From positions 1,594 to 65,593 of the forward strand of contig VRUD01000013.1 in assembly GCA_019456305.1 (NCBI GenBank): a stretch of DNA of 64,000 nucleotides. The letters are read 5' to 3'. This document shows positions 21,187 to 62,418 of this stretch, in pieces (the first letter of the stretch is position 1; the number at the start of each line of letters is the position of its first letter). The translations under genes and the position numbers were made by a program. The DNA is from Cytophagales bacterium (GTDB lineage Bacteria > Bacteroidota > Bacteroidia > Cytophagales > VRUD01). The notes beneath the pieces are model-generated. The model made no database searches, was not told where the DNA came from, and saw only the letters and a list, made by a program, of their open reading frames with translations.

Positions 21187-21336
21187 TGAAATTCCGATAC
21201 GTTTAAAATAGAAAAAAATAATGATACAACATTTTGTTTCTTTTGGAAATGTCATAACTTTGTCTAAATGTTGAATTAAACTGATGCCAATATACGTATG
21301 TATAATGCTAATCCCGCCTTTGGCGGGACTAATGAT

Positions 21337-27411: not shown

Positions 27412-27412
27412 G

Positions 27413-27616: not shown

Positions 27617-27635
27617 GATTTGTATATTGAATGTA

Positions 27636-27656
27636 AATATAAGTTCTGCTTATATT
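27636..27656. promoter_or_regulatory. candidate operator: inverted repeat aatataag-N5-cttatatt
   Basis: The 8-bp arms are perfect and lie 20 nt upstream of the HTH start. A third aatataag half-site sits at 27678-27685. Confidence 0.45.
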
Positions 27657-27675
27657 AATAGAAGCAAGAATTTCA

Positions 27676-27683
27676 CAAATATA
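27676..27683 (-). promoter_or_regulatory. candidate -7 box (TAtaTTTG on the minus strand) for the HTH-MTase operon
   Basis: The plus-strand caaatata reads tatatttg on the minus strand. It lies 60 nt upstream of the HTH ATG and overlaps the third half-site. Confidence 0.35.
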
Positions 27684-27844
27684 AGAATAATTAATGTTAA
27701 TAACTAATATTTGAATGTTGATAAAAGCAAGCTCTTTTGCAAAGTTTTGGTTTGCCTATCAACAACTTCCTGTTGGTATCTTGTATATCAGATTATTAAA
27801 ACCAGATGAAACATATTAACTTTGCATTCGTAGGATTCCAACTA

Positions 27845-28729: not shown

Positions 28730-28730
28730 A

Positions 28731-29546: not shown

Positions 29547-29582
29547 AAAGCGGGCGGGGAAATTTAGCTCTTTCAGATTTTT

Positions 29583-30446: not shown

Positions 30447-30596
30447 TTTTTATATTGTCACTTTGCGCATGGCGCATGGAGCATAGCGCATAGCTCCCAT
30501 ACTCCAGGCAATCTAATCATGCCTGTCTTTCATTAATCTTACGGGTGATACGCAGGTATGTTACAAATTTTCAAATTACCAAAGAATCTAATTCCT

Positions 30597-30699
30597 TAAT
30601 ATTTCTGATTTACTTTTCATTTATTGTTCTTTACAAAGAGTCTAATTCCTTCAGTTCCTTCTCAAACCCACCGCTCAATATAGGAAACCTGCACCATGA
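30597..30699. repeat. 103-bp direct repeat, copy A (downstream of rhuM)
   Basis: It matches 31708-31810 at 102 of 103 positions. It contains a copy of the last ~23 nadE codons, the spacer and the first 8 rhuM codons. Confidence 0.9.
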
Positions 30700-30717
30700 T
30701 ATTTTTTTAGATACATA

Positions 30718-34299: not shown

Positions 34300-34325
34300 A
34301 ATAAAACTATTTTTTAATTAAAATA

Positions 34326-34478
34326 TGAGTCCACTCTTAAAAGTCTTTTTTGCCACAAAAGCACAAAAACACTAAATCCCACTAAAAATTAACTAATTGA
34401 TTTTCAGGGTTTTGTGGGATTTAGTGCTTTGGTGATTTGGTGGCATTTTTATTTTTTGGACTTATTAGAGTGGACTCA
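34326..34478 (+). mobile_element. 153-bp MITE-like element, copy 2
   Basis: It has the same terminal inverted repeats and internal sequence as copy 1. Confidence 0.7.
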
Positions 34479-36667: not shown

Positions 36668-36851
36668 TGTATCGGAATCCGATAGCTATCGGATTCAATG
36701 TTTTGCCACTAAATCTCTAAAACACAAAATCCCACAAAAGCAGTAAGCAGTCCCGACAAATCGGGATCTCTGTTGCACTCCGATAGGCAGTTGACAGCAG
36801 GCAATATTGTCAACTGTCAATTGTCAACTGCCTATTTCTTTTGACTAATCC

Positions 36852-42642: not shown

Positions 42643-42742
42643 TTTATTTTAATAAAAGTAGCTACAAAAATATACAAAGTAACTAACAAAAACAAAATAC
42701 CGGTAAATAATAAATATAAAACATACTCATCGCTATAAACTT

Positions 42743-44563
42743 TTAAAACTTAATTAGTTTTTGAATATCTAACCTTCCTTCTCTTATTAATCGGAAAAAA
42801 TAAATTCCTTTATTCACACCTGTTTTTGAAGCATCTATAAAGTATCTGTATTTACCACGCTCTTGTTTTTCCTCAACCACCGTATAAACCTTTTGCCCAA
42901 AGATATTATAAATTTCCAATGATACAAAACCTGAAGCATTCAGGGTATATTGAACCTGTACTTTATCGGAAAAAGGATTGGGATAAACGATTAGAGATTG
43001 ATGATTATAAATTACAGATTGATCAATACCTGTCGTAGTATCTTCTACCTTGATGATCGTAAAGTTATCAAAAACTACTGCGTTTGTATCAATGAAATAT
43101 GCATTCAACGTGTCCCCGGTTATCTCAAGCGCCATTGAACCGAGAATATAATCACCTGTAAACATTACAGGGTGGTCTAATTGCCCATCGCCTGCAAAGT
43201 TCCCTTTTTTAGCCGAGCTTCCAACAACAGCATAAACTGTTCCGTAATTGGCATTCGGGCCGGTAGTATACTTTATATATGGTGTACCATCTAACAGACT
43301 GCCGCTTGATGAATCAAGCAGCATGGTTGCAGTATCAAATGTATTGGAAAATCCATAATGGCCGCGTATCAGGTAGGAACGTTCGTAGTTATGACTATGC
43401 CCGCACAATACCAGATCAACACCATGATCTTCAAGGACCGGAAGAATGCTGTCACGCATGGCTTTCATAAAAAACTCAAATCCTGCAGGAGTATTTGGAT
43501 AAACATTATCAGAATTGTGAGTGCCTTTTGAATAGGGAGTTTGATGCCAATAAGCAATGATCCATGGCTGATTTGTATTGGCAAGATCATTTTTAAGCCA
43601 GGAGATCATATCTGCACGGGCAGTAAAATCTATGTTGCCTGGCCAAAACACACCATTCCACTTTGCACTTTCTGAGTTCAGTGATAAAAAATGTACATTT
43701 CCATAATCAAATGAATAATACTCTTCTATTCCGCTGGAACTACCACCTGCTTCTCCACTGACAGGCATGGTAAAAATATCATAATAAACTCCTGTATGGG
43801 GTGTTGTAGTTGTATCAACGCTTGAATAGTCGTGATTGCCCGGACTGGGCCAAAGCACTGTCTTTGCAAATATCTCCGGATACATATCAAAAACATTTGT
43901 CTGATATTCTAATTCTGTTCCTGTGTCATAAGCATTATCTCCAAGCCATAGCCATACATCAGTATGCTGATTTCCCATATAGCTCTTATAAGCATCGCGT
44001 ACAGCTCTTTGACCATTATTGCCTTCTCCAAAATCACCGATTGCCCACACCCTGACCGGCTGTACAGTACCCGGTAAAGGGGATGTTTGAAAATATTGCA
44101 TACTATCCGGTCCTGTCAAAATAGAATCGCTTGTTGCAATTGCGTAGTAATAACGGGTGTTTGGTGATAGACCTGTGATCTTTACTTCGTGTTCGGTGGT
44201 AAGCGCAGCACTGTCAATGATTGACATTCCTGCAGTATCAGGCTGCAAACCATAATAAACCCTGCTGTTTACCGGAGTAAGTGAATCTGTTCTCCAGCGA
44301 ACCACCATGCTATTGGGTGTACCAACTTGTAAATAGGGGCCTCTTCTGACTGATATGTTTTGGGCTTTTGAAAAAGTTGGCAGTAGGCAGTTGACAGTTG
44401 GCAATAGGCAGTAAACAGCAAGGAGTAGGCAGATCCCCCGGGTACTTGGGTAAATCTTAGCGGAGTTTATCCCGACACAGTCAGGGCTCCGATAGGTAAT
44501 AGGCAATATTGCAACTTTTGTTCTGCACATGATGTGCAGGATTATTTTTTTGATTTTTTTCAT
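42743..44563 (-). CDS. calcineurin-like metallophosphoesterase (purple-acid-phosphatase-like) with a T9SS type A CTD
   Basis: It has the motifs GDFG, GDNAYD, GNHD and GHSHNYER, and the C-terminus is VYPNPFSDKVQVQYTL...GIYFFRLI. The N-terminal ~90 codons are built from repeat sequences, so the start is uncertain. Confidence 0.75.
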   Translation of the reverse strand: MKKIKKIILHIMCRTKVAILPITYRSPDCVGINSAKIYPSTRGICLLLAVYCLLPTVNCLLPTFSKAQNISVRRGPYLQVGTPNSMVVRWRTDSLTPVNSRVYYGLQPDTAGMSIIDSAALTTEHEVKITGLSPNTRYYYAIATSDSILTGPDSMQYFQTSPLPGTVQPVRVWAIGDFGEGNNGQRAVRDAYKSYMGNQHTDVWLWLGDNAYDTGTELEYQTNVFDMYPEIFAKTVLWPSPGNHDYSSVDTTTTPHTGVYYDIFTMPVSGEAGGSSSGIEEYYSFDYGNVHFLSLNSESAKWNGVFWPGNIDFTARADMISWLKNDLANTNQPWIIAYWHQTPYSKGTHNSDNVYPNTPAGFEFFMKAMRDSILPVLEDHGVDLVLCGHSHNYERSYLIRGHYGFSNTFDTATMLLDSSSGSLLDGTPYIKYTTGPNANYGTVYAVVGSSAKKGNFAGDGQLDHPVMFTGDYILGSMALEITGDTLNAYFIDTNAVVFDNFTIIKVEDTTTGIDQSVIYNHQSLIVYPNPFSDKVQVQYTLNASGFVSLEIYNIFGQKVYTVVEEKQERGKYRYFIDASKTGVNKGIYFFRLIREGRLDIQKLIKF

Positions 44564-44670
44564 TTGTAAATAATTTGTTTTTTGAAGTTCAAATAAAAAC
44601 AAACAAAGATAAGTAATAAAATTTTATTAATACAAAATTTTATTATTTTTGCAATTAAAATAAAACTACC

Positions 44671-45033
44671 ATGGAACCTACAATAACTTATGTAACATTG
44701 ATAGCAGGATTAGTTACCATTACCTGGTTTATTAGGGATGTGAGGAAACAAAACAGTAAATCGCTTAAATCAATTGACCAAACTCAAATGAAGCAAAGTG
44801 AAATATTGCTGAAAATAGAGGAAGGGCAAAGAAAGGGTTTTGAAGTATTAGCAAAAATTCTTGAAAGAGTAGAAAAAAGCAGTGAAGCAACAGCCAGGAT
44901 CCTTGAAAGAATAGAAAAAAGCAGTGAAGCAACAGCCGAGACCCTTGAAAGAATTCAAAAAAGCAGTGAAGCAACAGTAAAAAGCAGTGAAACACAAACA
45001 AAGATTCTCGATAAAATACTGGCAAAAGCTTAG
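44671..45033 (+). CDS. membrane-anchored coiled-coil protein with three 42-bp tandem repeats
   Basis: It has an N-terminal TM helix. The units ILERVEKSSEATAR / ILERIEKSSEATAE / TLERIQKSSEATVK lie at nt 44857-44982. Confidence 0.5.
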   Translation: MEPTITYVTLIAGLVTITWFIRDVRKQNSKSLKSIDQTQMKQSEILLKIEEGQRKGFEVLAKILERVEKSSEATARILERIEKSSEATAETLERIQKSSEATVKSSETQTKILDKILAKA

Positions 45034-45052
45034 AAAATTAACAATATAATCA

Positions 45053-45205
45053 TGAGTCCACTCTAAAAAGTCTTTTTTGCCACAAAAGCACAAAAACACA
45101 AAATCCCACTAAAAATTAACTAATTGATTTTCAGGGTTTTGTGGGATTTAGTGCTTTGGTGTTTTAGTGGCATTTTTATTTTTTGGACTTATTAGAGTGG
45201 ACTCA
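45053..45205 (+). mobile_element. 153-bp MITE-like element, copy 3
   Basis: It has the same terminal inverted repeats. The track start of the downstream ORF at 45167 lies inside it. Confidence 0.7.
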
Positions 45206-45211
45206 ATCATT

Positions 45212-48115
45212 ATGACTAAAATAAGAATTTTATCAGTAATTCTAATATTCACATTATTTCAAAGTGTTAATGCTCAAATTAAAATTTCGGGCAAGGTTTT
45301 AGATAATAGAAACAAGGAAGCCCTGGTTGGCACCAACATTGTGATCAAAGGAACAACCACAGGCACCACCACTAATTTTAATGGAGCATTTGAACTTGAA
45401 GTTGACTCATTGCCGGTAACATTACAAATCTCATTCATAGGTTATGTGAAAAAGGATTTGCGGGTAACCAATGCTGCTAAAGCCTTGAACATCTCGATGG
45501 AAGGTTTAGCGTTTACAGGGCAGGAAGTTGTGGTAACAGCTTCCAGGGTGGAAGAGACCATTATGGAATCTCCTGTTTCAATTCAAAAAATCAACGCCAG
45601 GGAGATCCAGGGTGCAGCATCAGGGGATTTTTACCAGGATATCGGCAATTTGCAAGGAGTGGATGTTGCTACGGCCAGTATGGGTTTTAAAGTTATAAAT
45701 ACAAGGGGGTTCAATACTACTTTTAACACCCGTTCCGTACAGTTTATAGATGGTATGGACAACCAGGCGCCAGGCCTCCAGGTCTCCGTTGGCAATCTTG
45801 TGGGCGCTTCTGAATTAGACCTTGAAAGTGTAGAGTTAATATCCGGTCCTGCTTCAGCATTATATGGTCCAAACGCTATGCAGGGAGTAGTCAGCATGAC
45901 CACAAAAAACCCATTTGATTATACCGGATTAGACGTTTTGGTAAAAGGCGGGACAAGAAACCTTTTTGACGGGCAATTTCGATATGCCCAGGTTTTAGAT
46001 ACCTCTTTAATTCCTTCTTTACCATCTTTTTTAAACAACAAACTTGCTTTTAAATTTACCGGCTCTTATATGCAGGCAGATGATTGGGAAGCTATTGACA
46101 CTGCTGCAAACAGGTATGGAGATGAATTTCTTGGAGGCGATGATCCGTTAGAAGTAGATCTCAGCAGTATCGTAGCTCAAGCACAATATGATACACTAAA
46201 CTTTACACCGGATGAAATAGATGACTGGATCGCTTTAAATAATTTTCTTGGTTTCAATCGCGGCCTTTTCCCCGGGAAAATAAATATCCCATCAGCGCCT
46301 GGATATATGGAATCAGACCTTGCTGATTATTCCACTAAAAGTATAAAAGCCGGAGCAAGCCTTCACTATAAATTTAACGATAGTCTCAAAATATCCTACG
46401 ATTATAAATTCGGACTTGGAACAGCAATTTTCCAGGCTACCAACAGGTTCAGTATCAAAAATATACAATTCCAGCAGCACAAATTAGAGCTAACCGGTAA
46501 AAACTTTTTCGTAAGAGGATACACAACGCTGGAAAATGCAGGCGATGCTTACGATATTGTATTTACAGGAATTTTCTTATCAAAGAAATCAATTGAGGAT
46601 CTTTATGTTCCTGACTATTTAAGTGAATATTTTGATATTTTAGATACGCTAACCAATGGATTCGAAAGCAGTGACGACGGCAATTGGTGGAGTGAAGACA
46701 GACAGGCAATCATTGACAGCGCTCATTCTGCTGCTGTAAGTGCGGCTGCAAATTCATGGTATCAACCCGGTACGGCTCAATTTGATTCTGTTTATAATGC
46801 AACAATCAATATTCCTACCCGAAAAAAAGATGGCTCTAAATTTGTTGACGCCTCCTCTCTGCAGCATTTCGAAGCGCAATATGACTTTACTGAAATGCTT
46901 GGTAACAAATTAAATCTTGGATTATCCAGTATTATTGCAGGCGCTTCGTTCAGAAGATACAACCCTCATTCTTTTGGGACAATCTTTTCAGACACATTGA
47001 TCAATCGCTCCGATGCTTTGGAAAGTGGAGATATTGACATCAATTCAGAATACGTAGATATTTCCACATGGGAATATGGAGCTTATACTCAAATCTCAAA
47101 ACGCTTCTTAGACAACAAATTAAAAATAACCGGCTCCATCCGTTTTGATGATCACAAGAATTATGATCCGCAGCTTTCCCCCAGGGCATCAGCCGTTTAC
47201 ACGTACAAGGATAATAATTTCCGGGTTGCCGTCCAATCAGCTTTTCGAGCTCCTACATTACAGAACCAATACTTGTATATAGACCTTGGTGCACTATTTC
47301 TGGAAGGTAACCTGAACGGTTCAACTAATTATACACGAGGATCTGTTGATGCATTCAATGATATGTTTGATATTACAAAAGTCTCTCTTAATCAGTGGGT
47401 ATATAATCTTGATCATATAGATTCAATAAGTAAAGCAACGCTAAAGATCATAACACTTGCCCCCCTGCAACCCGAACATGTTAACTCTTTAGAAATCGGT
47501 TACAGGAGTATTTTTAATAATGATCTATACGTTGATATGACTGTATATTACAGCATTTATTCTAATTTTATAGGCAACAGAAGAGTAATAAGGCCTTTGT
47601 TTTCCGGGACAGGTGTTCCAACAGGCGAAGATAGCATTAATGCTATTATTGCAGGTACCTCCAAACTGTATCAGATACCGGTCAATGCAAAAGAAGATAT
47701 AACAACTTATGGCGGTTCAATTGGTATATCGTATTTTTTTGGCAGGGGACTGACGGCTAAGCTCAATTATACCTATGCTTTTATGGATACATCAAATCTT
47801 GGCGAATTCATTCCCGGTTTTAATACACCGAAAAATAAGTTTAATGTCGGCTTACAGGGAACCAGCATTTATAAAGGATTGGGATTTTCTGTTAATTATA
47901 AATGGATAGAAGGTTTCAGTTGGGAAAGTTCATTTGGTGACGGGAACGTACCAACTTACAATTTGTTGGATGTACAGTTAAACTATAATTTTTCCGATCT
48001 ACATTCCATACTTCGGGTTGGCGCATCCAACCTGCTGAAAAATAGCCATATTGAAGCTTTTGGCGCTCCTGCTGTTGGGAGGATAATTTATACTTCGTGG
48101 ACGTTTAGCCTGTAA
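45212..48115 (+). CDS. TonB-dependent receptor (CarboxypepD_reg, plug and beta-barrel)
   Basis: It has a signal peptide and a CarboxypepD_reg-like ISGKVLD...GTNIVIKGTTTGTTTNFNGAFELE segment. A plug follows (ESPVSIQKINAREI) and the terminal strand ends YTSWTFSL. I take the start at MTKIRIL. Confidence 0.85.
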   Translation: MTKIRILSVILIFTLFQSVNAQIKISGKVLDNRNKEALVGTNIVIKGTTTGTTTNFNGAFELEVDSLPVTLQISFIGYVKKDLRVTNAAKALNISMEGLAFTGQEVVVTASRVEETIMESPVSIQKINAREIQGAASGDFYQDIGNLQGVDVATASMGFKVINTRGFNTTFNTRSVQFIDGMDNQAPGLQVSVGNLVGASELDLESVELISGPASALYGPNAMQGVVSMTTKNPFDYTGLDVLVKGGTRNLFDGQFRYAQVLDTSLIPSLPSFLNNKLAFKFTGSYMQADDWEAIDTAANRYGDEFLGGDDPLEVDLSSIVAQAQYDTLNFTPDEIDDWIALNNFLGFNRGLFPGKINIPSAPGYMESDLADYSTKSIKAGASLHYKFNDSLKISYDYKFGLGTAIFQATNRFSIKNIQFQQHKLELTGKNFFVRGYTTLENAGDAYDIVFTGIFLSKKSIEDLYVPDYLSEYFDILDTLTNGFESSDDGNWWSEDRQAIIDSAHSAAVSAAANSWYQPGTAQFDSVYNATINIPTRKKDGSKFVDASSLQHFEAQYDFTEMLGNKLNLGLSSIIAGASFRRYNPHSFGTIFSDTLINRSDALESGDIDINSEYVDISTWEYGAYTQISKRFLDNKLKITGSIRFDDHKNYDPQLSPRASAVYTYKDNNFRVAVQSAFRAPTLQNQYLYIDLGALFLEGNLNGSTNYTRGSVDAFNDMFDITKVSLNQWVYNLDHIDSISKATLKIITLAPLQPEHVNSLEIGYRSIFNNDLYVDMTVYYSIYSNFIGNRRVIRPLFSGTGVPTGEDSINAIIAGTSKLYQIPVNAKEDITTYGGSIGISYFFGRGLTAKLNYTYAFMDTSNLGEFIPGFNTPKNKFNVGLQGTSIYKGLGFSVNYKWIEGFSWESSFGDGNVPTYNLLDVQLNYNFSDLHSILRVGASNLLKNSHIEAFGAPAVGRIIYTSWTFSL

Positions 48116-48145
48116 ATTCGATTTGAAAGTAAATTTTTCATTTTG

Positions 48146-48235
48146 GGGCATCTCTAAAAACTACATATTTTTTAAAACACACCCCTTGCCCCTCTTGATA
48201 GAGGGGAATGTATGGTGTAGTTTTTAGAGATGCCC
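48146..48235. repeat. 90-bp palindromic element with a nested inner hairpin
   Basis: It has 20-bp perfect arms, gggcatctctaaaaactaca / tgtagtttttagagatgccc. The inner hairpin is cccctct-tgat-agagggg at 48189-48206. Confidence 0.8.
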
Positions 48236-48351
48236 TTTGGTATTTATTTAAAGTTGTTTAAAATTCTTTGTTTGTCCTCATTCTCTTTGTTGTTCTTGTG
48301 ATACAGCTCTACAAAAATTTATTATTCCTGGTTTAGTTGTTTTAGTGTGAC

Positions 48352-48820
48352 GGGTTCCGAATGTGGATTTCCGTGATCTCTTATTGTGAGCCCGACTTGG
48401 AGTCGGACTCCCATGGGGTTCGGACTCCCACGCTATCGGAGTCCCACTCCGAGTGGGGCTCCGAATAATGAGGATTTCCGTGGTCTCTTATTGTGAGCCC
48501 GACCGGGAGTCGGACTCCCATATTCCCCAGTACGGTCGTTCCTCCCTACGGGGTAAACCTCACTATGGGGCAGGCTGGGAGTCGGACTCCCACGCTATCG
48601 GAGTCCCGTTCGTTCCCCAGTACGGTCGTTCCTCCCTACAGGGAATTAACGATGCCATCGCTTTATTTAGTTAACGACCAATTAATTATACTGCTGTTGT
48701 TTTAAGCAATGATGTTGTTAAATATATTGGTTTTTAGCGATGGCATCGTTTGTCCGAACCCCATGGGAGTCGGACTCCCATGGGGTTCGGACTCCCACGC
48801 TATCGGAGTCCCACTCCGAG
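48352..48820. repeat. roughly 470-bp pile-up of at least four short repeat families
   Basis: There are two ~57-bp direct units (ccgaat..ggatttccgtg.tctcttattgtgagcccgac..ggagtcggactcccat). ggactcccacgctatcggagtccc occurs three times. The 29-nt ccccagtacggtcgttcctccctacgggg occurs twice. A 33-nt perfect odd palindrome lies at 48756-48788. The inverted repeat aacgatgccatcgct / agcgatggcatcgtt is also present. Confidence 0.85.
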
Positions 48821-51800
48821 CTACATCAACCCTCTCACTCTCGCCAGACTCAGTCCGGTTACTTCTGCTATAAATTGGATATCTGACCCTTTTGCCAGCA
48901 TTTTCCCTGTTATCTCATACCTTTCATCCTTCCTCGCCTTCTTCACGATCGTATTCTCCACCCTCTTAGTGAGCATTTTTACGCTAAAGTCTCGCTGTGT
49001 TTTTACCTTCAGCCTGGCGGTGGCGCGGGCGATGCGCAGGACGAAGCCCTCAAACGGAATGAGCAATGCGCCTATGGACACATTAAGCACGATCTTCAGG
49101 ATAACGATACCGGTGATGTAGGAGGCAAGCGCCTCCTCGGTGTAGTTTTGCGCGTACTCCAGCACTAAGAAGATGAACATATAAGCAAGTACTTTTATGA
49201 GCTTCTGGCGTTTTTCTCCTGTGCCGCGCAGCATTAGTATAATACAGAACAAGCCGAACAACACCCCGCCCTGCAGCGCATAAAACCACCACGTTAACCA
49301 CCAGGGCGGCAGGATGCGAAAGCGGTACTCCCCTATAGCACTCTCATGCCCATACACATTCTTTGCCTTTACCCTGAAGGTGTATTTGCCGGGGTCTAAG
49401 TTGGTGAAGTTGGTTTTGGTTTCTGTGCTCCACGGGCTCCAGTCTTTGGTAGTACCCTCCAGGAAAAAGCTGTACTGCGTTTTCTCTTCCTTTACATAAA
49501 AAGGCGCAGCAAAGCGGAAAGTGAAATTATTCATGTCATAAGGGAGTACGGGCGCCATTGCTGCCGGCTGTTTTTGTACTACACGCGGCGCTGCCGTGCC
49601 GGTATTATAACCAAAGCCGCCATACAGCACCGTATCTCTTATCACACCCGGTTTCCCCCCTTTGGTGGGAGGGCGATGTCCAGTGGACATTGAGCCAGCC
49701 TGTGGGAGGGGGGCTCTCACTTCGGTGACCATGCAGGGGTAGGGATGCTCATAATTCAATACAATCGAAGGATCATACCGCAGTAGCCCGTCATCTCCGC
49801 CTATCCATATTAACCCATCCTGCGCAGGGTAAATGACGCGTGGAACCCCTATATTCATGCTCAAAAAAGGGATGGTATCCACCATGTATGCACCTTGCGG
49901 GGTTAATTTGCAGTGAACGACCTTACTTTTACTTGACATCCACACATCCCCGTTGGGCGCCTGGAAAAAGCTGTATACCGGCCTTCCCGTATCTGCAAAC
50001 ATTGCTCCAAACTGGGTGCAGGGTATGATCCTGTAGCGCTTCCTGTCAGGGGTAGAGACACGGTGCACCGTGTCTCTACCCCCTCCTGGGGCTGCTTCGT
50101 ACAACCCCTTATCAGTACACACCATCACCTCCCAGGTTCCATCAGGAGATTTCCAGGGGAAAACCCCGGTATATCCTTCCGGTACTTCCCTGCCTGCCTG
50201 ATAATGCTCATGCCCGGTCACATTTCCATGCTCATCCACGAGTATCCGGTGCACTCCCTCATAGATTGTGCCTGCCCACACCTCGGTAAGGGTTGTATCG
50301 GAAGGCAGGGGACGGGTAACTATATCATATATTTCTCTTATCTCCTTATTCGAAAGGAGTTGTTTTGACTCCCAGCCTGGGTGACCCTGCCGTTGAGCTA
50401 CTCTGTATAAACCATCCCTGCCGCCTGTAAATATAGCTCCCCTGTGGCTGATGGCAAGGCCTTGACTTTGTGCTTTCAGTATTTTCTCAACAATTACATC
50501 ACTTTCAACTGATTTTCCGACTGCCGACTGTTTACCCCGTAGGGAGAAACGACCGTACTGGGGCCGACTGCCGACTTGTTCACGGGCGGGTTGTATGGAA
50601 TATAAGCCGACATTTCCTGCAAGGATAAACCTGCCGGTTGGAGGATGGTACCGGATGTTCCGACACTGACTTTCAATGCCCGGTACTTTTTGAAACAGGC
50701 TGCCTGTTGCTGCGGAACCGGTCATTTTCGCTTTGCTTTCCCTGCCGCCAGCGCTGTAATAACAGCCCTGTGCTGTGGCAAGCCACACAGCAGCAGCCGG
50801 GGTATTTTCATTCATGATGGCAATGGATTGAATTTTTCCATCTATCCCATCATTGTATCCATACCAGCCAACGGGTGAGGGAAACTCTAACCGGCTGATA
50901 CCGTTGTTAGTGCACAGCCATACAGCGCCCGGGGGCGCTGCTTCCATAGCGCCTGATGCAGCGGGAAGATACAACTGGTTCCATATAAGGTTATCACTCA
51001 GCCCCTCTTTTTTACTTAAATGGAACAGCGGGGTCAAAGCCATGCCGCCTGCCCCGTTGGATCCTTCTTCCATCCAACCTGGGCCGGTCAGCTCCAAACC
51101 AACTATTCCGTCATTTCGTGTTCCTGCCATGTACAGGGGAGGGATGCCGCTGAAAGAGAGCAATGCCGCGTTATAGGGTAATGCAGAAGGGTTGTAGCGC
51201 ACGTATTGTCCGTTCCTGATGAGCAGCCCTCCCGGACCCGCCTGCCATAGGCCTTTGGCCTGTCCGCCAGACAGGCGGGCGGGCAGGTTTTGAAAATCCG
51301 GCAGCTCCGTATCAGCGCCCGTCACCCCGGGGTAAACCTGCCCTGCCGCTTTGTCGTACCGGTAAAAGCCACCGGGCTTCACATACAAAAGCAAGCCGGT
51401 ATAGTTACCGGCAGCCATCGCTTCCCCGGTTGCGTCCGGATAAACCTGCTGTACGGGATGAAGGGCATAAATGCGTCCTTCTTTTACAATGGTTTTGGTA
51501 CCGGGAAGCAGCTCCCATGCTGTTCCGCCTGCCCCGTCCGTAAGATTAGGATCAAAGGTAAGGATGCCCAATCCATCATGCTGGATATAAAGCGATGCCT
51601 CTGTATCTTTCCGGTTTCCCCCGGCATTGCCGGTTGCAGGGGCAGTTCCTCCGGCTTCGACCAGGGCGGGTGCATAAAATGAACTGAAAAACAGGCCGGA
51701 AGTGGTGGTATTTAACTTTTCCGTGTTTTCCTTTTTGGCGCTGCCGGCCTGCCCCGTACCGGAGGCCGGGGGTATTTGTTCCTGCCTGCCTGTTATTTCA

Positions 51801-52354
51801 TTGTAAACCGAGTCAGGCAGGAAAACCTCCATCTTTCCTGTTTCTGGCTGATAGAGGAACAGATGGGAGTATGCATTAAATACAATACCAAACCGGGTGG
51901 CATGGGTCTCCCATACACTGGAGAATTGCCCCGTACCGGAGGCCGGGGGTATTTTGTCTGTCAGCGACACATATTCCAGCGCTCCGGTAATGGTACTTGC
52001 ATTTAATATTTCGTACTTCCCTGTTGGGGCGATATATCCGAACTCACCGCTGCCACCCGCATAAATAATGCCTGAAGCGGTATCTAAGTCCATGCTGACT
52101 ATATAATTCCCGGCTCCCACCGGCACATGGCTCCAGGAGGCGCCATCGTAGATGAATATTTCATCTGCGGTTCCAAAATATGCCCTTCCGGCTTTGTCTG
52201 TTGCGGCACAGAATACCTGGCTGTGTGCTTTGTATTGTTTTGGAGTAAAATTGGTGATGGCCGGTCTATGGGGCAGTTGGGCAGTTGCTTCAAGCGTGCA
52301 TTGAAGGAGCAACACAGCAGTTGCGATAAATCGGATGTAGTTTGATGTTTTCAT
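48821..52354 (-). CDS. periplasmic sensor: two-component-regulator propeller repeats, Y_Y_Y domain and TM segments, with a short atypical C-terminal tail and no kinase domain
   Basis: It has a signal peptide and beta-propeller repeats. A Y_Y_Y-type segment (YSFFLEGTTKDWSPWS...GKYTFRVKAKNVYGHES) is followed by PPWWLTWWFYAL. The tail ends ...GSDIQFIAEVTGLSLARVRGLM. It is GC-rich relative to its neighbours. Confidence 0.75.
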   Translation of the reverse strand: MKTSNYIRFIATAVLLLQCTLEATAQLPHRPAITNFTPKQYKAHSQVFCAATDKAGRAYFGTADEIFIYDGASWSHVPVGAGNYIVSMDLDTASGIIYAGGSGEFGYIAPTGKYEILNASTITGALEYVSLTDKIPPASGTGQFSSVWETHATRFGIVFNAYSHLFLYQPETGKMEVFLPDSVYNEITGRQEQIPPASGTGQAGSAKKENTEKLNTTTSGLFFSSFYAPALVEAGGTAPATGNAGGNRKDTEASLYIQHDGLGILTFDPNLTDGAGGTAWELLPGTKTIVKEGRIYALHPVQQVYPDATGEAMAAGNYTGLLLYVKPGGFYRYDKAAGQVYPGVTGADTELPDFQNLPARLSGGQAKGLWQAGPGGLLIRNGQYVRYNPSALPYNAALLSFSGIPPLYMAGTRNDGIVGLELTGPGWMEEGSNGAGGMALTPLFHLSKKEGLSDNLIWNQLYLPAASGAMEAAPPGAVWLCTNNGISRLEFPSPVGWYGYNDGIDGKIQSIAIMNENTPAAAVWLATAQGCYYSAGGRESKAKMTGSAATGSLFQKVPGIESQCRNIRYHPPTGRFILAGNVGLYSIQPAREQVGSRPQYGRFSLRGKQSAVGKSVESDVIVEKILKAQSQGLAISHRGAIFTGGRDGLYRVAQRQGHPGWESKQLLSNKEIREIYDIVTRPLPSDTTLTEVWAGTIYEGVHRILVDEHGNVTGHEHYQAGREVPEGYTGVFPWKSPDGTWEVMVCTDKGLYEAAPGGGRDTVHRVSTPDRKRYRIIPCTQFGAMFADTGRPVYSFFQAPNGDVWMSSKSKVVHCKLTPQGAYMVDTIPFLSMNIGVPRVIYPAQDGLIWIGGDDGLLRYDPSIVLNYEHPYPCMVTEVRAPLPQAGSMSTGHRPPTKGGKPGVIRDTVLYGGFGYNTGTAAPRVVQKQPAAMAPVLPYDMNNFTFRFAAPFYVKEEKTQYSFFLEGTTKDWSPWSTETKTNFTNLDPGKYTFRVKAKNVYGHESAIGEYRFRILPPWWLTWWFYALQGGVLFGLFCIILMLRGTGEKRQKLIKVLAYMFIFLVLEYAQNYTEEALASYITGIVILKIVLNVSIGALLIPFEGFVLRIARATARLKVKTQRDFSVKMLTKRVENTIVKKARKDERYEITGKMLAKGSDIQFIAEVTGLSLARVRGLM

Positions 52355-52444
52355 GGTTGATAATTGTTAAGATAAAGAACTACAGGAATAAAAGTAAAAA
52401 GTAAAAAGTAAAAATATGGAGGCAGTTTTTTTCATTTTAAGTAA

Positions 52445-52508
52445 TGAGTCCACTCTAATAAGTCTTTTTTGCCACAAAAGCACAAAAACACAAAATCCCA
52501 CTAAAAAG
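52445..52508 (+). mobile_element. left half of the 153-bp MITE-like element (truncated copy 4)
   Basis: tgagtccactctaataagtcttttttgccacaaaagcacaaaaacacaaaatcccactaaaaag abuts a different palindromic element. Confidence 0.6.
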
Positions 52509-52510
52509 AA

Positions 52511-52602
52511 TTGTCATTGCGAGCGCAGCGAAGCAATCCATTCATAGAAAGTAGTACAATTAAACAGATTGCTTCGGTCGCTGCGCTCCCTCGCAATGAC
52601 AG
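52511..52602. repeat. imperfect inverted repeat (gtcattgcgag...cgcagcg...aagcaatc family)
   Basis: The left arm is 52511-52538 and the right arm is 52567-52602. The arms differ by small indels. Confidence 0.65.
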
Positions 52603-52653
52603 TTTTGTGTTATTATTTTCTTTTTGTTCGTAAGATCATTTCGCAATCCTTCT

Positions 52654-53643
52654 CTACGACACAACAAGCTCATATTTTTCTCCCACTTCATTCAAAATCT
52701 CACTGACCTCCTTAAGTGTTTCTCCCGTAACCAGCCTTGTCCGCAAAGGTTTAAAATCCGGGAACCCCCTGAAATAATTACTGTAATGCCTGCGCATTTC
52801 AAAAATGCCGGTTCGCGGCCCTTTCCATTCTATGGATCTTGCCAGATGCTTTTTACAGACTTCAACCCTTTCTTCTATATCAGGAGGAGGTAGTTTTTCA
52901 CCGGTTCTGAAATAATGCTTAATTTCATTAAATATCCAGGGATATCCGATAGCTGCTCTTCCGATCATAATTCCATCTACACCATATTGAGCCCTGTATT
53001 CCACGGCTTTCTCAGGGGAAACAACATCGCCATTTCCAAATATAGGAATATGTATGTCATCACAATTTTTAACTTCCGCTATCAATGACCAGTCTGCATT
53101 TCCTTTATACATTTGTTGTCTTGTACGGCCATGTATTGTGAGGGCTTTAATTCCGGCATCCTGCAGGCGCTTTGCTACTTCAACTATTTTAATTGAATGA
53201 TCATCCCAGCCTAAGCGCGTTTTAACGGTAACAGGCAAGGTACATTTTTTCACAATTTCTTCGGTCATTTTCTGCATTTTGGGCAAGTCTAACAGGATAC
53301 CTGCTCCGGCACCCTTGCAGGCAACATTTTTAACAGGGCAGCCATAGTTTATATCAATCAGCTCAGGATCAGCCGCTTCAGCAATAGCAGCAGCCTCCCG
53401 CATTGATTCGATCTTATCCCCAAATATCTGGATACCAATTGGCCGTTCATAATCGTAAATGTCTAACTTTCGCACACTTTTCTCAGCGCTTCTGATCAGC
53501 CCTTCTGAAGAGATAAACTCTGTGTAAAGCAGATCTGCCCCCTTGTCCTTACACACAGCCCTGAACGGAGGATCACTGACATCTTCCATGGGAGCGAGTA
53601 ATAATGGGAATTCTCCAAGTTCTAAATTGCCGATACGTACCAT
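52654..53643 (-). CDS. dusB: tRNA-dihydrouridine synthase
   Basis: LLAPMEDVSDPPFR, INYGCPVKNV..KGAGAGILLD and the TIHGRT motif match the Dus family. The upstream 9 codons of the track ORF are encoded by a gcgcatagcgcat repeat, so I take the start at MVRIGN. Confidence 0.85.
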   Translation of the reverse strand: MVRIGNLELGEFPLLLAPMEDVSDPPFRAVCKDKGADLLYTEFISSEGLIRSAEKSVRKLDIYDYERPIGIQIFGDKIESMREAAAIAEAADPELIDINYGCPVKNVACKGAGAGILLDLPKMQKMTEEIVKKCTLPVTVKTRLGWDDHSIKIVEVAKRLQDAGIKALTIHGRTRQQMYKGNADWSLIAEVKNCDDIHIPIFGNGDVVSPEKAVEYRAQYGVDGIMIGRAAIGYPWIFNEIKHYFRTGEKLPPPDIEERVEVCKKHLARSIEWKGPRTGIFEMRRHYSNYFRGFPDFKPLRTRLVTGETLKEVSEILNEVGEKYELVVS

Positions 53644-53748
53644 GTGAAGGGTGCATAGCGCATAGCGCATGGCGCATGGCGCATAGCTGCCACCGCTCTG
53701 CTCTCTGCACTATGTTTTTACAAGTTTTTCCCGTAAATTTACGCAATT

Positions 53749-54729
53749 ATGTCTTTAAATCCAAAACTTGTTCCGGGCGAAGCGAGGAATCTAATCCAAA
53801 ATCCACAATATTCGAAACTCGAAACTCGAACTGCAACCCAAAGCACCTTGCTATCCCTGGGCATGCTGATATTATTCATTTTTGCCGGATGGTTGATATT
53901 TCAATTTATTGCAGCAGTGGCAGTTTTGCCATTCTTTGATTTTGATATTATCACCATGCAAAATGTTTTCAGTGACCCTGTAAATAATCCTGAATCAAAA
54001 ATCCCATTCCTGGTAATTCAGGGAATTGTATCATTAGGTATGTTTATTATTTCGCCTCTACTATTCATGTATTTCATTGATAAGAGCAATCTTTACAATT
54101 TTCTCTCCTCCCTTGTCCCCCGTCTCTTGTTCCTCGTCCCGATGGTGATAACTATAATTATAGTAATCGTATTGATGCCTCTGAATTCAGCCATAATTGA
54201 ATGGAACGCTAATATAAAATTCCCGGAGATTCTTTCTTCTTTCGAACAGTGGGCTGCTGAAAAAGAATTAATGCTTAAAGAGCTAACAAATTTAATTACA
54301 GATTTTACCAGCTTCCCGCAATTTTTACTGGGGGTTTTGGTAATAGCAATCATTCCTGCAGTAGGAGAAGAGCTCGTTTTTAGAGGGTTGGTACAAAATA
54401 AATTGTTTCAGGTAACCAAAAACCGGCACATTGCTATATGGATCTCTGCTTTCTTGTTCAGCGCTATCCACATACAGTTTTATGGCTTTTTCCCCAGAAT
54501 GCTGCTTGGAATAATTTTTGGCTATCTTTATCTCTGGTCGGGAAATTTATTGATTCCGATAATTGCTCATTTTATAAATAATTGCTTTACTGCCGTGATC
54601 ATTTATCTAGGAAAACTAAATATTATTACCTTTGATATTGAATCAACCGAAGCTATGCCAATTGAGCTTGTGATTACCTCGTTGGTATTAACTATTGGAT
54701 TAATTTTTTTGTTTAGAAAATCTGTGTAA
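53749..54729 (+). CDS. CPBP-family intramembrane glutamic endopeptidase (CAAX protease-like)
   Basis: It has the motifs EELVFRG, FSAIHIQF and HFINN in a multi-TM protein. The start is uncertain because the first ~25 codons overlap a repeat. Confidence 0.8.
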   Translation: MSLNPKLVPGEARNLIQNPQYSKLETRTATQSTLLSLGMLILFIFAGWLIFQFIAAVAVLPFFDFDIITMQNVFSDPVNNPESKIPFLVIQGIVSLGMFIISPLLFMYFIDKSNLYNFLSSLVPRLLFLVPMVITIIIVIVLMPLNSAIIEWNANIKFPEILSSFEQWAAEKELMLKELTNLITDFTSFPQFLLGVLVIAIIPAVGEELVFRGLVQNKLFQVTKNRHIAIWISAFLFSAIHIQFYGFFPRMLLGIIFGYLYLWSGNLLIPIIAHFINNCFTAVIIYLGKLNIITFDIESTEAMPIELVITSLVLTIGLIFLFRKSV

Positions 54730-54732
54730 TCT

Positions 54733-55653
54733 ATGAAATCTGTGGTTAAAAAACGTATCCTCGTTGGTATTATCGGAGCCGCTCTGATAATTTTCTGCAT
54801 TTGCTTCAGTGCATGGACCTATTTTGCTTTGTTCTTCCTGATATGTCTTTTCAGCCAGTTAGAATTTTACAAAAATGTGGCTGCGGGTCGTATTTGTAAT
54901 CCGGCTCTATATTTAGGGCTCATCTGCGGGCTAACTTTATTCACATCAACTTTCTTAATAGAAAAAGAAATTATTAGCCAAAACTATTATTATCTTTTAT
55001 TCCCATTTTTAAGTTTAATTTTTCTTTTTGAACTCTTTAAACCGGCATCCAGTATCCAGTCAGAGCGAAGCGGAGATCCAGATCTACCAGGGCATCCAGC
55101 ATCCAGCTTCACCAACATTGCTTTTACTTTTTTAGGAATAATCTACATTGCCCTCCCACTTGCACTGTTAAACATTGCAGCCTTTTCAACAGAACATTCT
55201 GCTATCCAACATCTAATATCCAGTATCCGGCATCCAGCATCCAGCATCCAGTATTATAGTTACCAGGTCATTTTAGGGATTTTACTCATCGTATGGGCTA
55301 ATGATACACTGGCATATTTTGTAGGGATCAATTTTGGCCGAACAAAGCTTTTTCAGCGCATCTCACCGAAAAAAACCTGGGAAGGAACCATCGGGGGTGG
55401 TGTTGCTTCGCTCATCACTGCCTTGATTTTATCTTTTTATTTCAAAGACCTGCTGTTGTGGCAATGGATGACTTTATCTTTGATAATAATCATATCATCT
55501 ACATTAGGCGACCTTGTGGAATCATTATTCAAACGCAGCCTTAACATAAAAGATTCGGCAACAACAATTCCCGGCCACGGAGGATTTCTTGACAGGTTTG
55601 ACGGGCTGTTCCTGGCAGCGCCTTTTGTGACGGCATTTTTAAAATTTTTGTAA
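54733..55653 (+). CDS. cdsA: phosphatidate cytidylyltransferase
   Basis: It has the signature region SPKKTWEGTIGG...GDLVESLFKRSLNIKDSATTIPGHGGFLDRFDG. Two catccag-repeat-encoded segments interrupt it. Confidence 0.85.
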   Translation: MKSVVKKRILVGIIGAALIIFCICFSAWTYFALFFLICLFSQLEFYKNVAAGRICNPALYLGLICGLTLFTSTFLIEKEIISQNYYYLLFPFLSLIFLFELFKPASSIQSERSGDPDLPGHPASSFTNIAFTFLGIIYIALPLALLNIAAFSTEHSAIQHLISSIRHPASSIQYYSYQVILGILLIVWANDTLAYFVGINFGRTKLFQRISPKKTWEGTIGGGVASLITALILSFYFKDLLLWQWMTLSLIIIISSTLGDLVESLFKRSLNIKDSATTIPGHGGFLDRFDGLFLAAPFVTAFLKFL

Positions 55654-55707
55654 CCCATGACGAAAAAAAGAAAGAGCGTTGCAGATGAAGCGAGCCCAAT
55701 TTAAATA

Positions 55708-55860
55708 TGAGTCCACTCTAAAAAGTCCAAAAAATAAAAATGCCACTAAATCACCAAAGCACTAAATCCCACAAAACACTGAAAATCAATTAGTTAATTT
55801 ATAGTGGGATTTTGTGTTTTTGTGCTTTTGTGGCAAAAAAGACTTTTTAGAGTGGACTCA
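55708..55860 (-). mobile_element. 153-bp MITE-like element, copy 5 (inverted orientation)
   Basis: It is the reverse complement of copies 1-3, with a few substitutions. Confidence 0.7.
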
Positions 55861-55914
55861 AAATATCAATGATAAATATTCGTTTGTATATTATTATTTA
55901 CCTAAATTTGTGTT

Positions 55915-58900
55915 ATGATCTTTAAAAAAATTATATTGTCATTCAGCTTTGCTTTTGCATTTGCTTTTCTTCTCCACCTTTCCTCCTGGATTTTTTTCTC
56001 CCCCTTTGTGGGAGATTCAGAGGGGTCCTGGGTTGGGGGTGAAGTTTTTGCACAAACACTCAAATTCTCTGATGAGCCGGAGCAGTTCATAACAGACATC
56101 AACCAGATGATGGAAGCCACTACCTATGAAATTGCAATCCAGGCAGCAGTAAATTTCGATTCTGCATGGGTTTCACTCACCGGTGGTCAAAAGACAGTAC
56201 TGATCAGCATCGCTCAAAAGATGGCAAAAAGAAGACTCAAGCCAATACCAGACTTTCAGAATTTTTTTAATACAATTTCTTATGCTGTTCAAAATGACTC
56301 CATAGACTCACAAATACTTGATACATTTTTAACCGTAATGTTTAAAGTGATAGACAGACCTGAAAATAGCAATGCCTTGATCAGTAAATTTCTTGCAACT
56401 ACCAGGCTGTTTTTTGAAAAAAAAGCCCTGTACGACTCAAACTATAACAGCGTGTTTGTGATTGGAGGAACCTATGCTTTTGATTATATAGAACCGGAAG
56501 AAGAAAAAACTATCTTTGATGAATATGATCCCGAATACCCGGAAGCACAAGAAGAAGAAGCAGAAGATGATGACTGGGGTTGGGAGGATGAAGGTTGGGG
56601 TGATGAGGATGAAGATGATTTTACCACGAGCAAACAAAGGATCGAAGCTTTGTTAGGAGATGAAGTTACAGAAGATGATGCTACTGAGCAAACCCCAATA
56701 CAAGGCCCTGTAATAATTTTTAAAAACGCCAACATTGCCTTACGAACAAATTATGGCTCCAATCAAATTCAGGGCACAAATGGCACCTTCATGTTTTATA
56801 GCAACATTTTTACCGGGGATAGCGGCAAATTTGACTGGAGTAAAGTGGGAATTTCACCAGCAGCGCTTTATTGTGAATTTAAAGGATATAATTTTAACGT
56901 AAAAAGCCCTACCTTAAAAGTAGACTCAGTTACCTTACACTATCCTGAAGTGGTTGGCTACCCCGTTGAAGGAATATTTGAATTTCAAAGTAAAAAATAT
57001 TCAAATCCATTGAAAGCCCAATACCCCAAATTTAAGTCTTATTCTAACGATATTAAAATCAAAAACTTTGGGAAAAATATGATATATAAAGGAGGAATGG
57101 CCCTCATCTATAAAGGTGGATTAGCCCTTGCCGGCAACAGGATGAACAGTTTATCAGTGACCGGAGGAAACTGCGAAATGAACTTTCTCAGAAAAAACAA
57201 ATTAATGTTTAGGTTGTTAGCGAAAAGATTTGAATTAGGCGACTCTTTAATTGCCTCTAAAAATGCGTATTTTGTCCTTTATCAATATGAAGATTCGTTG
57301 ATGGACGGCAACAGAGTAGCATTTCAGCGAAAAGACTCAATCGTTCACCCAAAAGTTAAGTTGAAATACAATAAAAATACTGCCATGTTAAAGTTGGTAA
57401 CAGGTGGAAGTACATCAAAGCATACAGCATTCTCCGATTCCTATCATAATATTGATATCAGAGCAGAATTTCTTCACTGGGATTTGAAAACTTCACAAGT
57501 AAATTTTTCTATAATTACTGCAAAACACAAAGTACCGGCATTTTTTGAGTCAAGAGAATATTATGATCCTGTCAGGTACAAACAAATGGGGGGTATTTTA
57601 AGCTTTCATCCACTACAAATGGTGGTAATGTACGGACGCTTAAAAGGGAAAAAACAATTTTATGTTGATCAAATAGCAAGAGATTATAAGAAAAATGCCA
57701 ACACGATTAAATCTACCTGTGTATCTTTGGACAGGCAGGGGTTTATAGATTATAATGCTGAAACGGGTTTTATTAAATTAAAACCTAAGGGTATACATTA
57801 TGTGTATGCCAGCATGGGAAGAGCCGATTATGATAATATGCTGATAAGGTCTTTAAGCGCAGCAGGGAAAAATGCTACTTTAGACATTTCTAACAATGAG
57901 CTCACCGTAAGAGGCATTCGCAAGTTCTATTTAAGTGATTCGATGAGGGTGTTTGTGCTTCCGCAAGGTAACCAGATCAAAATATTAAAAGACCGCAATC
58001 TATTATTCAATGGCATGTTGAGAGCTGGTAATATGTTGTTTTACGGGCAGGATTTCAAGTTTGATTATGATGGTTTTTTTGTAGTTTTAAAACAGGTTGA
58101 TTCACTGAAATTCAGATTGGATAAAGTAGGAGTACTTGATAACCAGATGGTCTTTGAGGAGGGTATTTTATATATTAATAAGCCAAATAACAGATCGGGA
58201 AGAAAAAGCTTTCCGGATTATCCTAAGCTTGCCGCCCCACAGGGAGGAAAGGTCTATTTTGACCGGGATAAAGTGCTCAATCATGCTTATGATAAAAGTA
58301 TGTATTTTGAAATACCTGCTTTTGATCTTGATAGCCTCAACAGCTATAATCCTGCCTCCTTTTCATTTTATGGCACTTTTTATTCGGGCGGCATTTTCCC
58401 ACCCTTCCAGGAAAGATTGCGAATTATGCCGGATTACTCACTTGGATTTACGCACAAGGTCCCTTATGGTGGGTATAATCTTTACGGAAAGGATGACGCC
58501 CGGTTTTACGACATGCTTACCTTAAACAACGAGGGCCTGAGAGGACCGGGAGAGCTCAAATATTTAATGGCTACCTTAAAATCAGAGGATTTTGTTTTTT
58601 ATTTAGATTCTACTTTAGCTATAGCCACAGCAGGGTATATACAAAAAGGTAATTATAACGAAGCATCCTGCCCTCAGACAACCTATGATCGCTGCCTGAT
58701 GAAATGGCTGCCTAAGCTCGGTATGTATTTAAGCAATACCGATATACAAGCCCCGATCCTGCTTTATGAAGGAGACGCTACATTAGATGGAACCACGCTA
58801 TTAACTGCAACCGGGTTATATGGAATTGGCAAAGTCTCTACAAGTGATGCAGCAACAATATCTGATAAGTTTCATTTTAGAGAAAATGACTTTAGCGCCA

Positions 58901-62225: not shown

Positions 62226-62270
62226 GACGAATTACGAATGACGAAGTACGAATTCGTCATTCGTAATTCG
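62226..62270 (+). terminator. 19-bp perfect-stem hairpin 10 nt downstream of plsY (tacgaa/ttcgta repeat family)
   Basis: Positions 62226-62244 pair perfectly with 62252-62270 around a 7-nt loop. No U-tract follows. Confidence 0.45.
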
Positions 62271-62418
62271 TACTTCGTAATTTACAATGACCGGTAAAAG
62301 CATCCCTATACAAATATTTTATTTCTTATTATTTACAGCTATACAGCTAATTTTACTAAGAAACGCTGTGCTTTTTAAAAAATTTATATCATTTTTTTTG
62401 CATTTAAAAAAAATGCCC

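Follow-up and report, generated by a model that had tools for sequence, protein, structure and literature searches.

The periplasmic sensors of the hybrid two-component systems (HTCS) of Bacteroides, such as BT4663 (PDB 4a2l/4a2m), BT3049 (3v9f) and BT4673 (3va6/3ott), contain a signal peptide, two Reg_prop beta-propellers, a Y_Y_Y domain and a membrane span. The same architecture is found in a sensor gene (48821-52354, minus strand) within the 64-kb stretch of Cytophagales bacterium DNA analysed here (the window), which is chromosomal DNA with a G+C content (GC) of 38.9% as a whole. Unlike HTCS, the sensor protein has no HisKA, HATPase, receiver or AraC part and carries a three-helix module and a 70-aa tail. 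Its identity to the Bacteroides HTCS sensors is 11-15%, and in contrast to them its propellers hold many Gly/Ala/Pro-rich loop inserts. In summary, it is an HTCS-type sensor whose membrane module, which lacks an output, is previously undescribed, and it is both decorated and bordered by known types of repetitive extragenic palindromic (REP) sequences and MITEs (miniature inverted-repeat transposable elements).

GTAG-tagged REPs are palindromes of 20-40 bp with GTAG at one end (PMC3733652), and they have been documented within genes, as have REPs placed directly against stop codons (Di Nocera et al. 2013, PMC3733652). The sensor locus resembles intragenic REPs, Rickettsia palindromic elements and GTAG REPs in its short GC-rich palindromes with GTAG/CTAC ends, which lie in frame in surface loops and leave the gene preserved. 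REP arrays placed against the 3' end of an ORF (open reading frame) are a further likeness between GTAG-REP systems and this locus. Unlike in those systems, the units of its 3' array are confined to the sensor locus and most of its inserts are not demonstrable palindromes.

Laterally acquired genomic islets show a sharp step in GC and codon usage, a patchy distribution, repeat-rich borders and polymorphism between strains, and the sensor locus shows the same. However, it differs from them in having no mobility gene, tRNA or direct-repeat border, in its host-like dinucleotides and in a composition common to diverged relatives. We favour an old acquisition of the gene, or its exchange among related Cytophagales, over enrichment of GC in place, at a probability of about one half, and the data cannot separate these two origins.

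Composition of the sensor gene and its relatives

The stretch 48340-52300 contains 52.2% G+C, compared with 38.1% in 44000-48339 and 38.9% in 52301-56300, and sliding windows, at a GC of 0.36-0.42 outside, reach 0.50-0.57 from about 48340 to 52300. The sensor gene alone has a GC of 0.519, with 0.548, 0.465 and 0.545 at codon positions 1, 2 and 3 (GC1, GC2 and GC3), while GC3 of the 32 other ORFs in the window is 0.355 on average (standard deviation, sd, 0.077; maximum 0.490). Windows of 3534 nt placed elsewhere have a mean GC of 0.379 (sd 0.021; maximum 0.464), against 0.525 at the sensor gene. At the third codon position, C is raised (0.283 vs 0.189 +/- 0.021; +4.5 sd) together with G, and T is lowered (0.222 vs 0.335 +/- 0.035; -3.2 sd) together with A. 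The gene is GC-rich even without its inserts, with GC 0.497 and GC3 0.537 in the conserved core columns. The fraction of residues with GC-rich codons (Gly/Ala/Arg/Pro) is 0.311 in the sensor protein, mostly about 0.20 (range 0.16-0.29) in the host proteins tested and 0.16-0.21 in the full-length family relatives.

The initial annotation had called the gene compositionally deviant after counting 57-58% G+C in sampled lines inside it and 38% in line 46001 of the neighbouring TonB-dependent receptor gene. Recomputed, the lines inside the gene contain 58.3% and 56.7%, as counted; the line in the receptor gene contains 26.7%, so that count was wrong (the receptor gene as a whole has 39% GC). The full GC, GC3 and codon-usage profile makes the sensor gene a strong outlier, in agreement with the call.

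The window has only one other GC-rich patch, at 41000-42250 in ORF 38113-42642 (minus strand), with 54-57% GC and a GC skew of -0.4. It is a low-complexity domain rich in Gly (GGxGG) within a 1509-aa Ig_7/CHU_C protein of T9SS (the type IX secretion system), with high GC1 and GC2. Since GC3 in this patch is only 0.31, its cause is amino-acid composition and it is unrelated to the sensor gene; used as a control, the patch shows that GC3 separates the causes of GC-richness. Low-GC outliers are also present: of the scattered defence or mobile-type genes at 3641-4183, 9713-10291 and 26242-31731 (Uma2 endonuclease, zeta-toxin-like kinase, DNA methylase fragment, DUF488, RhuM), several are strongly AT-rich (GC3 0.15-0.26).

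A search of 5.8 billion clustered proteins yielded for the sensor protein a single close relative of full length, a 93% allele (P0001). Another three relatives share 68-71% identity with it in the C-terminal part. One of them (P0033; NCBI, Cytophagales metagenome-assembled genome, MAG) is a 300-aa C-terminal fragment with 69% identity and the same tail, known as protein only. The second (L084) is frameshifted; its stop falls within a CCCC..AAAGGGGGGG element, and a Y_Y_Y fragment lies inverted upstream. The third (L085) is truncated N-terminally, at the start of Y_Y_Y. The gene pieces in L084 and L085 have a GC3 of 0.50-0.59, against 0.26-0.49 in neighbouring genes, and their dS to the window gene is 0.44-1.0. 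These pieces are GC-rich inside AT-rich DNA and their neighbours differ from those in the window, which indicates that the composition belongs to the gene lineage and not to the locus. Two distant family members (P0003 and P0002) have a GC equal to that of their own contigs (L082 and L083, of ordinary GC). Wherever DNA could be read, GC-richness thus appears to be restricted to a small subclade made up of the sensor gene, its 93% allele and the three fragmentary relatives. Metagenomes scanned with peptide patterns of this subclade gave no match.

In both L084 and L085, AT-rich simple-repeat insertions were observed in the same Y_Y_Y loop after 'LEG' (AAATCCGAA units at 361-440 of L085; AAGACAAAAG units at 1360-1400 of L084), and the window gene has none there, indicating that this loop also tolerates repeat insertions. 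A PF05635 gene (23S rRNA intervening-sequence or Avd-like four-helix protein; L085 1152-1556) lies directly downstream of the truncated sensor relative, and no reverse transcriptase is found on this 2-kb contig.

Repeats and haplotypes at the locus

Compared with three distant homologues, the sensor protein contains 178 lineage-specific insert residues, which are Gly/Ala/Pro-rich and encoded at GC 0.614. In the periplasmic part of the AlphaFold model, 69% of insert residues have a predicted local distance difference test score (pLDDT) below 50, compared with 19% of core residues (odds ratio 9.5).

One insert holds a perfect 34-nt palindrome with GTAG/CTAC tags, GGGGTAGAGACACGGTG/CACCGTGTCTCTACCCC (50049-50082; residues 758-769; fold z = -5.9), located between two 12-nt indels that are polymorphic between haplotypes. 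Its mate lies at 20948-20980, inside a 71-nt hairpin, and both fit the pattern GGGTAGAGAC..GTCTCTACCC, for which 0 matches are expected by chance. These are the only two GTAG palindromes in the 64 kb, and no RAYT/Y1 transposase was found among window ORFs of at least 150 aa. The hairpin around the mate (20929-20999) is perfect, with a 30-bp stem, and is a REP doublet in which each arm contains two GTAGAGACG units. It falls in the predicted N-terminal part of an Omp85/POTRA ORF (19498-21255, minus strand), whose true start may be downstream.

A second intragenic element of 34 nt (50530-50563, minus strand) encodes PQYGRFSLRGKQ in a loop that is absent from two of three aligned distant homologues (P0002 and P0004). 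It is a copy of a 34-nt element of the array behind the gene, with 97% identity, and 100% in the other haplotype. A 12-nt GTCGGCAGTCGG direct repeat around it resembles a target-site duplication, which we do not claim, because its copies start 47 nt apart and 47 is not divisible by three. A 28-nt exact direct repeat (51750-51777 and 51927-51954, minus strand) encodes IPPASGTGQ twice, and an in-frame segment of 51 nt with 73% GC (51239-51289, minus strand) exists in this haplotype only. CCCC..AAAGGGGG motifs, which encode PP(T)KGG, recur in the window, the second haplotype (L001) and L084.

The nested hairpin-repeat array (48340-48820, minus strand; 52.8% GC) lies directly behind the stop codon (48821-48823). 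It is a mosaic of GGGAGTCGGACTCCCA-type hairpins and other units, and the 10 window matches of the GGGAGTCGGACTCCCA motif (both strands, at most 2 mismatches) all fall in it. One 55-nt unit (48399-48453) is 100% identical to another (48766-48820) that abuts the stop codon and, together with the preceding 14 nt, forms a perfect hairpin with a 20-bp stem (48752-48792). The 34-nt element CCCCAGTACGG..CCCTACGGGG occurs twice in the array (48523-48558 and 48613-48643, plus strand), inverted relative to the intragenic copy. The RNA of the array folds at -228 kcal/mol (z = -10.2 vs shuffles). Its units are found nowhere else in the window; a 23-mer from it has no match in the metagenome scan, its DNA has no match in plasmids, and Rfam assigns the hairpins to no family (sub-threshold miRNA-like noise only). 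We infer for the array a 3' untranslated region role like that of REPs or bacterial interspersed mosaic elements (BIMEs).

Further out, a 90-bp palindrome (48146-48235) follows the stop of the TonB receptor gene, with perfect 20-nt arms, a 50-nt spacer and an inner CCCCTC..GAGGGG hairpin, and is single copy in the window. On the other side of the sensor gene, a truncated MITE (52444-52507, plus strand) consists of the first 64 nt of a 154-nt MITE, and a 96-nt palindromic element, TGTCATTGCGAG...CTCGCAATGACA (52509-52604), abuts it. The left and right palindromes are mutually unrelated. From the above, the gene is bounded on both sides as first described, by the left palindrome and a repeat cluster of about 480 bp that ends at 48820, next to the stop codon, and by the truncated MITE and second palindrome on the right.

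Four full copies of the 154-nt MITE, all intergenic, exist at 7029-7182, 34325-34478, 45052-45205 and 55707-55860. The terminal inverted repeats of this MITE are ATGAGTCCACTCTAAAAAGTC, and weaker fragments were seen at 21079-21153 and 36701-36735. Other palindromes in the window include a perfect one of 20 nt, CCTCCCGAGTACTCGGGAGG (6644-6663), within a fused MurF-alanine racemase gene; in L084 the motif CCTCCCGAGTACTCGGGA, almost the same, comes after the stop of the sensor relative (about 2050-2075). At 62227-62278, just past a plsY-like gene, there are overlapping perfect palindromes with ACGAAT-type units and a 19-bp stem.

A second haplotype (L001) comes from ENA assembly ERZ23499938, scaffold_295, and is identical to the window over 38804-47000. 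In the sensor gene the two diverge by about 8% over 1.6 kb (49718-51307, minus strand), with 100 substitutions, five in-frame indels, a dS of 0.12 and a dN/dS of 0.58. Within codons 456-880, 17 codons carry more than one change, with five of these altered at every position, and the substitution spectrum between the haplotypes is symmetric. Outside this tract dN is 0, and no difference occurs in the 1.0 kb at the start of the gene or the 0.9 kb at its end. Beyond the gene, a 17-nt indel was found in the array, and the upstream segment 52391-52602, which holds the MITE and palindrome, is replaced by other DNA in L001. The window allele is also present in ERZ23499938, where a scaffold of its own, 4.2 kb long, covers just the region of difference; this indicates a haplotype bubble, with both haplotypes in a single metagenome. 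The proposal of a fast-evolving locus is supported by this divergence and its five in-frame indels, while about 8 kb of neighbouring DNA is identical.

The six remaining haplotype differences in the aligned 14 kb are all in 47000-47300, in the TonB receptor gene. This cluster suggests a second small recombination tract.

Origin of the GC-rich gene

Under an old acquisition or exchange, the locus would be a GC-rich islet of about 4 kb, formed by one intact accessory gene and the GC-rich hairpin array behind its stop codon. The gene lineage may have got its composition in a GC-richer Bacteroidota background and would now be patchy among AT-rich Cytophagales, probably exchanged and often lost. 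Its GC would have been raised further by in-frame inserts coding for Gly/Ala/Pro in surface loops, some of them recognisable REP-like palindromes. The flanking pile-ups would be REP/MITE-type elements that turn over between strains, and the 3' array probably stabilises or terminates the transcript as part of the 3' untranslated region. In the population, the islet may act as a recombination-driven hot spot of polymorphism.

Several observations weigh against this reading. Neither 5.8 billion clustered nor 1.84 billion representative proteins contained a GC-rich donor homologue, and the amino-acid usage of the closest full-length relatives is of the kind seen in AT-rich genomes. The dinucleotide relative-abundance distance between the sensor gene and the remainder of the window (delta* x1000) is 53.4, against 53.1 +/- 22 in other 3.5-kb windows, and its usage of the ATA, AGG, GCA and GTA codons stays host-typical. 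The 64-kb window contains no integrase, transposase or tRNA, and no direct repeats flank the locus. The plasmid search returned no copy of the sensor gene, only generic Y_Y_Y matches. Six other inserts fold no better than shuffles, leaving one unambiguous palindrome only, so REP accretion accounts for only part of the excess GC; the low pLDDT of the inserts is partly expected, as alignment columns are empty there.

Host-like dinucleotides and the absence of integrase, transposase and tRNA mean that a classic recent island is not supported. The suggestion that the gene is foreign therefore holds in part: the step in GC and codon usage, the patchy distribution and the strain-variable borders speak for it, while the host-like dinucleotides, the lack of mobility genes and a composition shared by diverged relatives speak against it. 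A foreign origin of the sensor gene is plausible.

Alternatively, the gene could be native, with its GC raised and kept up in place and without any transfer, by GC-biased gene conversion at a hot spot of recombination, by selection acting on codons or Gly/Ala/Pro-rich loops, or by steady accretion of GC-rich repeats. We consider this possible, though unlikely. It agrees with the host-like dinucleotide signature and host-typical codons, with the absence of mobility genes and tRNA from the window, with the visible recombination at the locus in the population, with the persistence of GC-richness across dS of 0.4-1.0 in the relatives, and with the closest family members coming from AT-rich-type genomes. 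However, biased gene conversion in bacteria is credited with a few GC3 points, and the excess of 17-19 points is far above that. The relatives occupy other loci and show the degradation typical of accessory genes. GC in the two thirds of the gene that do not vary is as high as in the recombined middle, and the TonB receptor gene, which also has a small polymorphic tract, is of ordinary GC. Acquisition or exchange is the origin we prefer on these grounds.

Programmed hypervariation is very improbable, either by a diversity-generating retroelement (DGR) or by cassette conversion with the 3' array as donor. The variation is indeed concentrated in one tract with five whole-codon replacements, and a 34-nt piece of this tract exists twice, inverted, in the array, where the other haplotype matches the array copy at the single mismatch. 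Besides, an Avd-like PF05635 gene stands next to L085. However, no reverse transcriptase was found in the 64-kb window, there is no template repeat, the shared piece is just 34 nt, and the substitutions are symmetric rather than adenine-specific. The idea was rejected. A 1.6-kb tract with a dS of 0.12 is what the import of a diverged allele gives, and the tract looks like such an import, into a fast-evolving and frame-constrained domain predicted to bind ligand, and not like targeted hypermutation.

The sensor protein and its output-less family

The intact 1177-aa protein consists of a signal peptide, a degenerate double beta-propeller, a Y_Y_Y domain, three membrane helices and a basic helical tail. 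The Y_Y_Y Ig-like domain (49334-49498, minus strand; residues 953-1007) matches PF07495 with an E-value of 2.1e-11 and 44 bits (Pfam cut-off 26.6), and has a pLDDT of 80-95. The Pfam Reg_prop signal is weak (E 1.6e-6 over the whole protein, with no single repeat passing). An exhaustive HMMER scan recovered 41,803 relatives. The AlphaFold model is strand-rich, with a mean pLDDT of 63 and values of 75-95 in the propeller blades and Y_Y_Y. In Foldseek, the top 15 places go to periplasmic domains from BT4663, BT4673 and BT3049 (E 1e-21 to 1e-25), and generic double propellers trail at 1e-10, eleven orders of magnitude behind. Together with three predicted helices, these matches agree with the propeller, Y_Y_Y and transmembrane architecture proposed at the outset.

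Only 162 residues follow Y_Y_Y, and neither Pfam nor NCBIfam gave a match to HisKA, HATPase_c, a receiver or an AraC-type helix-turn-helix in the protein. The three-helix membrane module (49031-49309, minus strand; about residues 1016-1108) reads PPWW.TWWFY ... LEYAQNYTEE ... LNV..GALLIPFE, has a GC3 of 0.68-0.72 and appears as three long helices after Y_Y_Y in both AlphaFold models. After it comes the basic tail of about 70 aa (48824-49030, minus strand; about residues 1109-1177) and nothing beyond, so the C-terminus is short and lacks an output domain, as first noted.

The charge distribution puts the tail on what is predicted to be the cytoplasmic side. The tail is common to the close subclade only, with a looser version in P0052. 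In the AlphaFold model it forms three short helices and ends in a helix-turn-helix-like GSDIQFIAEVTGLSLARVRGLM (pLDDT 64-73). The Pfam family HTH_7 matches it at E 0.06-0.07 and 13.7-13.9 bits, below the cut-off of 23.8 and in one of four members, and the tail profile matches only ankyrin-helix motifs among PDB sequences. A helix-turn-helix tail is a possibility only; the initial annotation's minimal helix-turn-helix finds agreement in the modelled shape, fails the HTH_7 threshold and stays unproven.

The three-helix module followed by the end of the protein, with no output domain, was found in 11 proteins (P0003, P0034, P0037, P0039, P0044, P0048, P0052, P0091, P0094, P0130 and P0141), most of which (8 of 11) are full-length (827-1020 aa). 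A 13-sequence alignment (A2) defines the family membrane motif as PP[WF]..TWWFY ... VFEY.QNYVE ... GGI..K..LNV....LP.E, and the close subclade is that of alignment A4. The sensor protein has the family architecture and its TWWFY, FEY.QNY.E and LNV...LP.E motifs, with no further domain. In contrast to it, the other members use amino acids as proteins of AT-rich genomes do, and their GC is ordinary where DNA is available (L082); most of them stop a few residues past helix 3, and a long tail is seen in this subclade and P0052. A word-index protein search with the profile of the C-terminal module gave 3 matches only. More distant superfamily relatives with kinase, SpoIIE, GGDEF or LuxR outputs, for example P0002, P0004 and P0007, are 25-29% identical.

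As the module is conserved across the output-less family, the short C-terminus is an ancestral trait and not a truncation, and the idea that a kinase or DNA-binding output had been lost does not hold, the 11 family members keeping the same C-terminal module. A decaying hybrid histidine kinase, with its output cut off by the repeat array, is hardly credible. The array does begin exactly past the stop codon, and most superfamily members have HisKA/HATPase, SpoIIE, GGDEF or LuxR outputs. However, P0033 and L085 retain the same stop (...LSLA.V.GLM*), and the 3' flank of L085, which is readable, has no hairpin array. Moreover, conservation of the module extends to more than 10 output-less proteins, the reading frame of 1177 codons is unbroken, all five haplotype indels are in frame, and no kinase-coding remnants lie downstream.

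The neighbourhood of the sensor gene contains T9SS cargo genes, the CarboxypepD_reg/Plug TonB-dependent receptor gene (45167-48115, convergent with the sensor gene), dusB, a CAAX protease gene and cdsA. The Dus protein has at most 80% aa identity to any homologue in 185,579 species genomes, with top matches in Cytophagaceae and Roseivirga MAGs. In a Dus-anchored scan of these genomes, Dus-CAAX-CdsA synteny is kept at 72 and 66 of 80 loci, with no conservation on the sensor side; this comparison carries no information at such a distance, the nearest relative compared being only 80% identical. NCBIfam and PADLOC gave no match. Upstream of the TonB receptor, a 120-aa ORF of unassigned function (44671-45033, plus strand), also called in L001, contains a 42-nt tandem repeat (44860-44977; 2.8 copies, 92% matches). 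An assembly chimera or contamination, with a GC-rich fragment of another organism joined in, is the least credible reading: assembly-breaking repeats flank the locus and the same allele stands on the separate 4.2-kb ENA scaffold, but the junctions on the Dus and TonB-receptor sides are identical in the window, L001 and a further locus (L086), both haplotypes are identical over the opening 1.0 kb and the closing 0.9 kb of the gene, and the relatives show the same GC step in their own contigs.

The product of the gene would be an inner-membrane protein with an HTCS-type periplasmic ligand-binding module. It may bind a periplasmic ligand and signal via the three-helix module to a membrane partner, or through the tail. 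A more far-reaching combination appears quite improbable: a lineage-tied process, either strong GC-biased conversion at a hot spot or ongoing in-frame capture of REP-like palindromes that builds sensor loops, would maintain the GC-richness, and the three-helix module with a mini helix-turn-helix tail would be an undescribed kinase-independent output of a membrane-tethered one-component regulator.

Nothing here overturns current understanding. The lineage, about 17-19 GC3 points above its AT-rich hosts with host dinucleotides kept, is a test case for amelioration after transfer versus locally biased substitution, and the locus offers a natural allele pair for studying the diversification of ligand-binding propellers. 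The in-frame palindromes extend the 'REP-decorated protein' of the Rickettsia/Pseudomonas type to Cytophagales. Should the three-helix family prove to be a genuine class of signalling proteins, many Bacteroidota proteins labelled 'two-component regulator propeller' or 'triple tyrosine motif' would act kinase-free.

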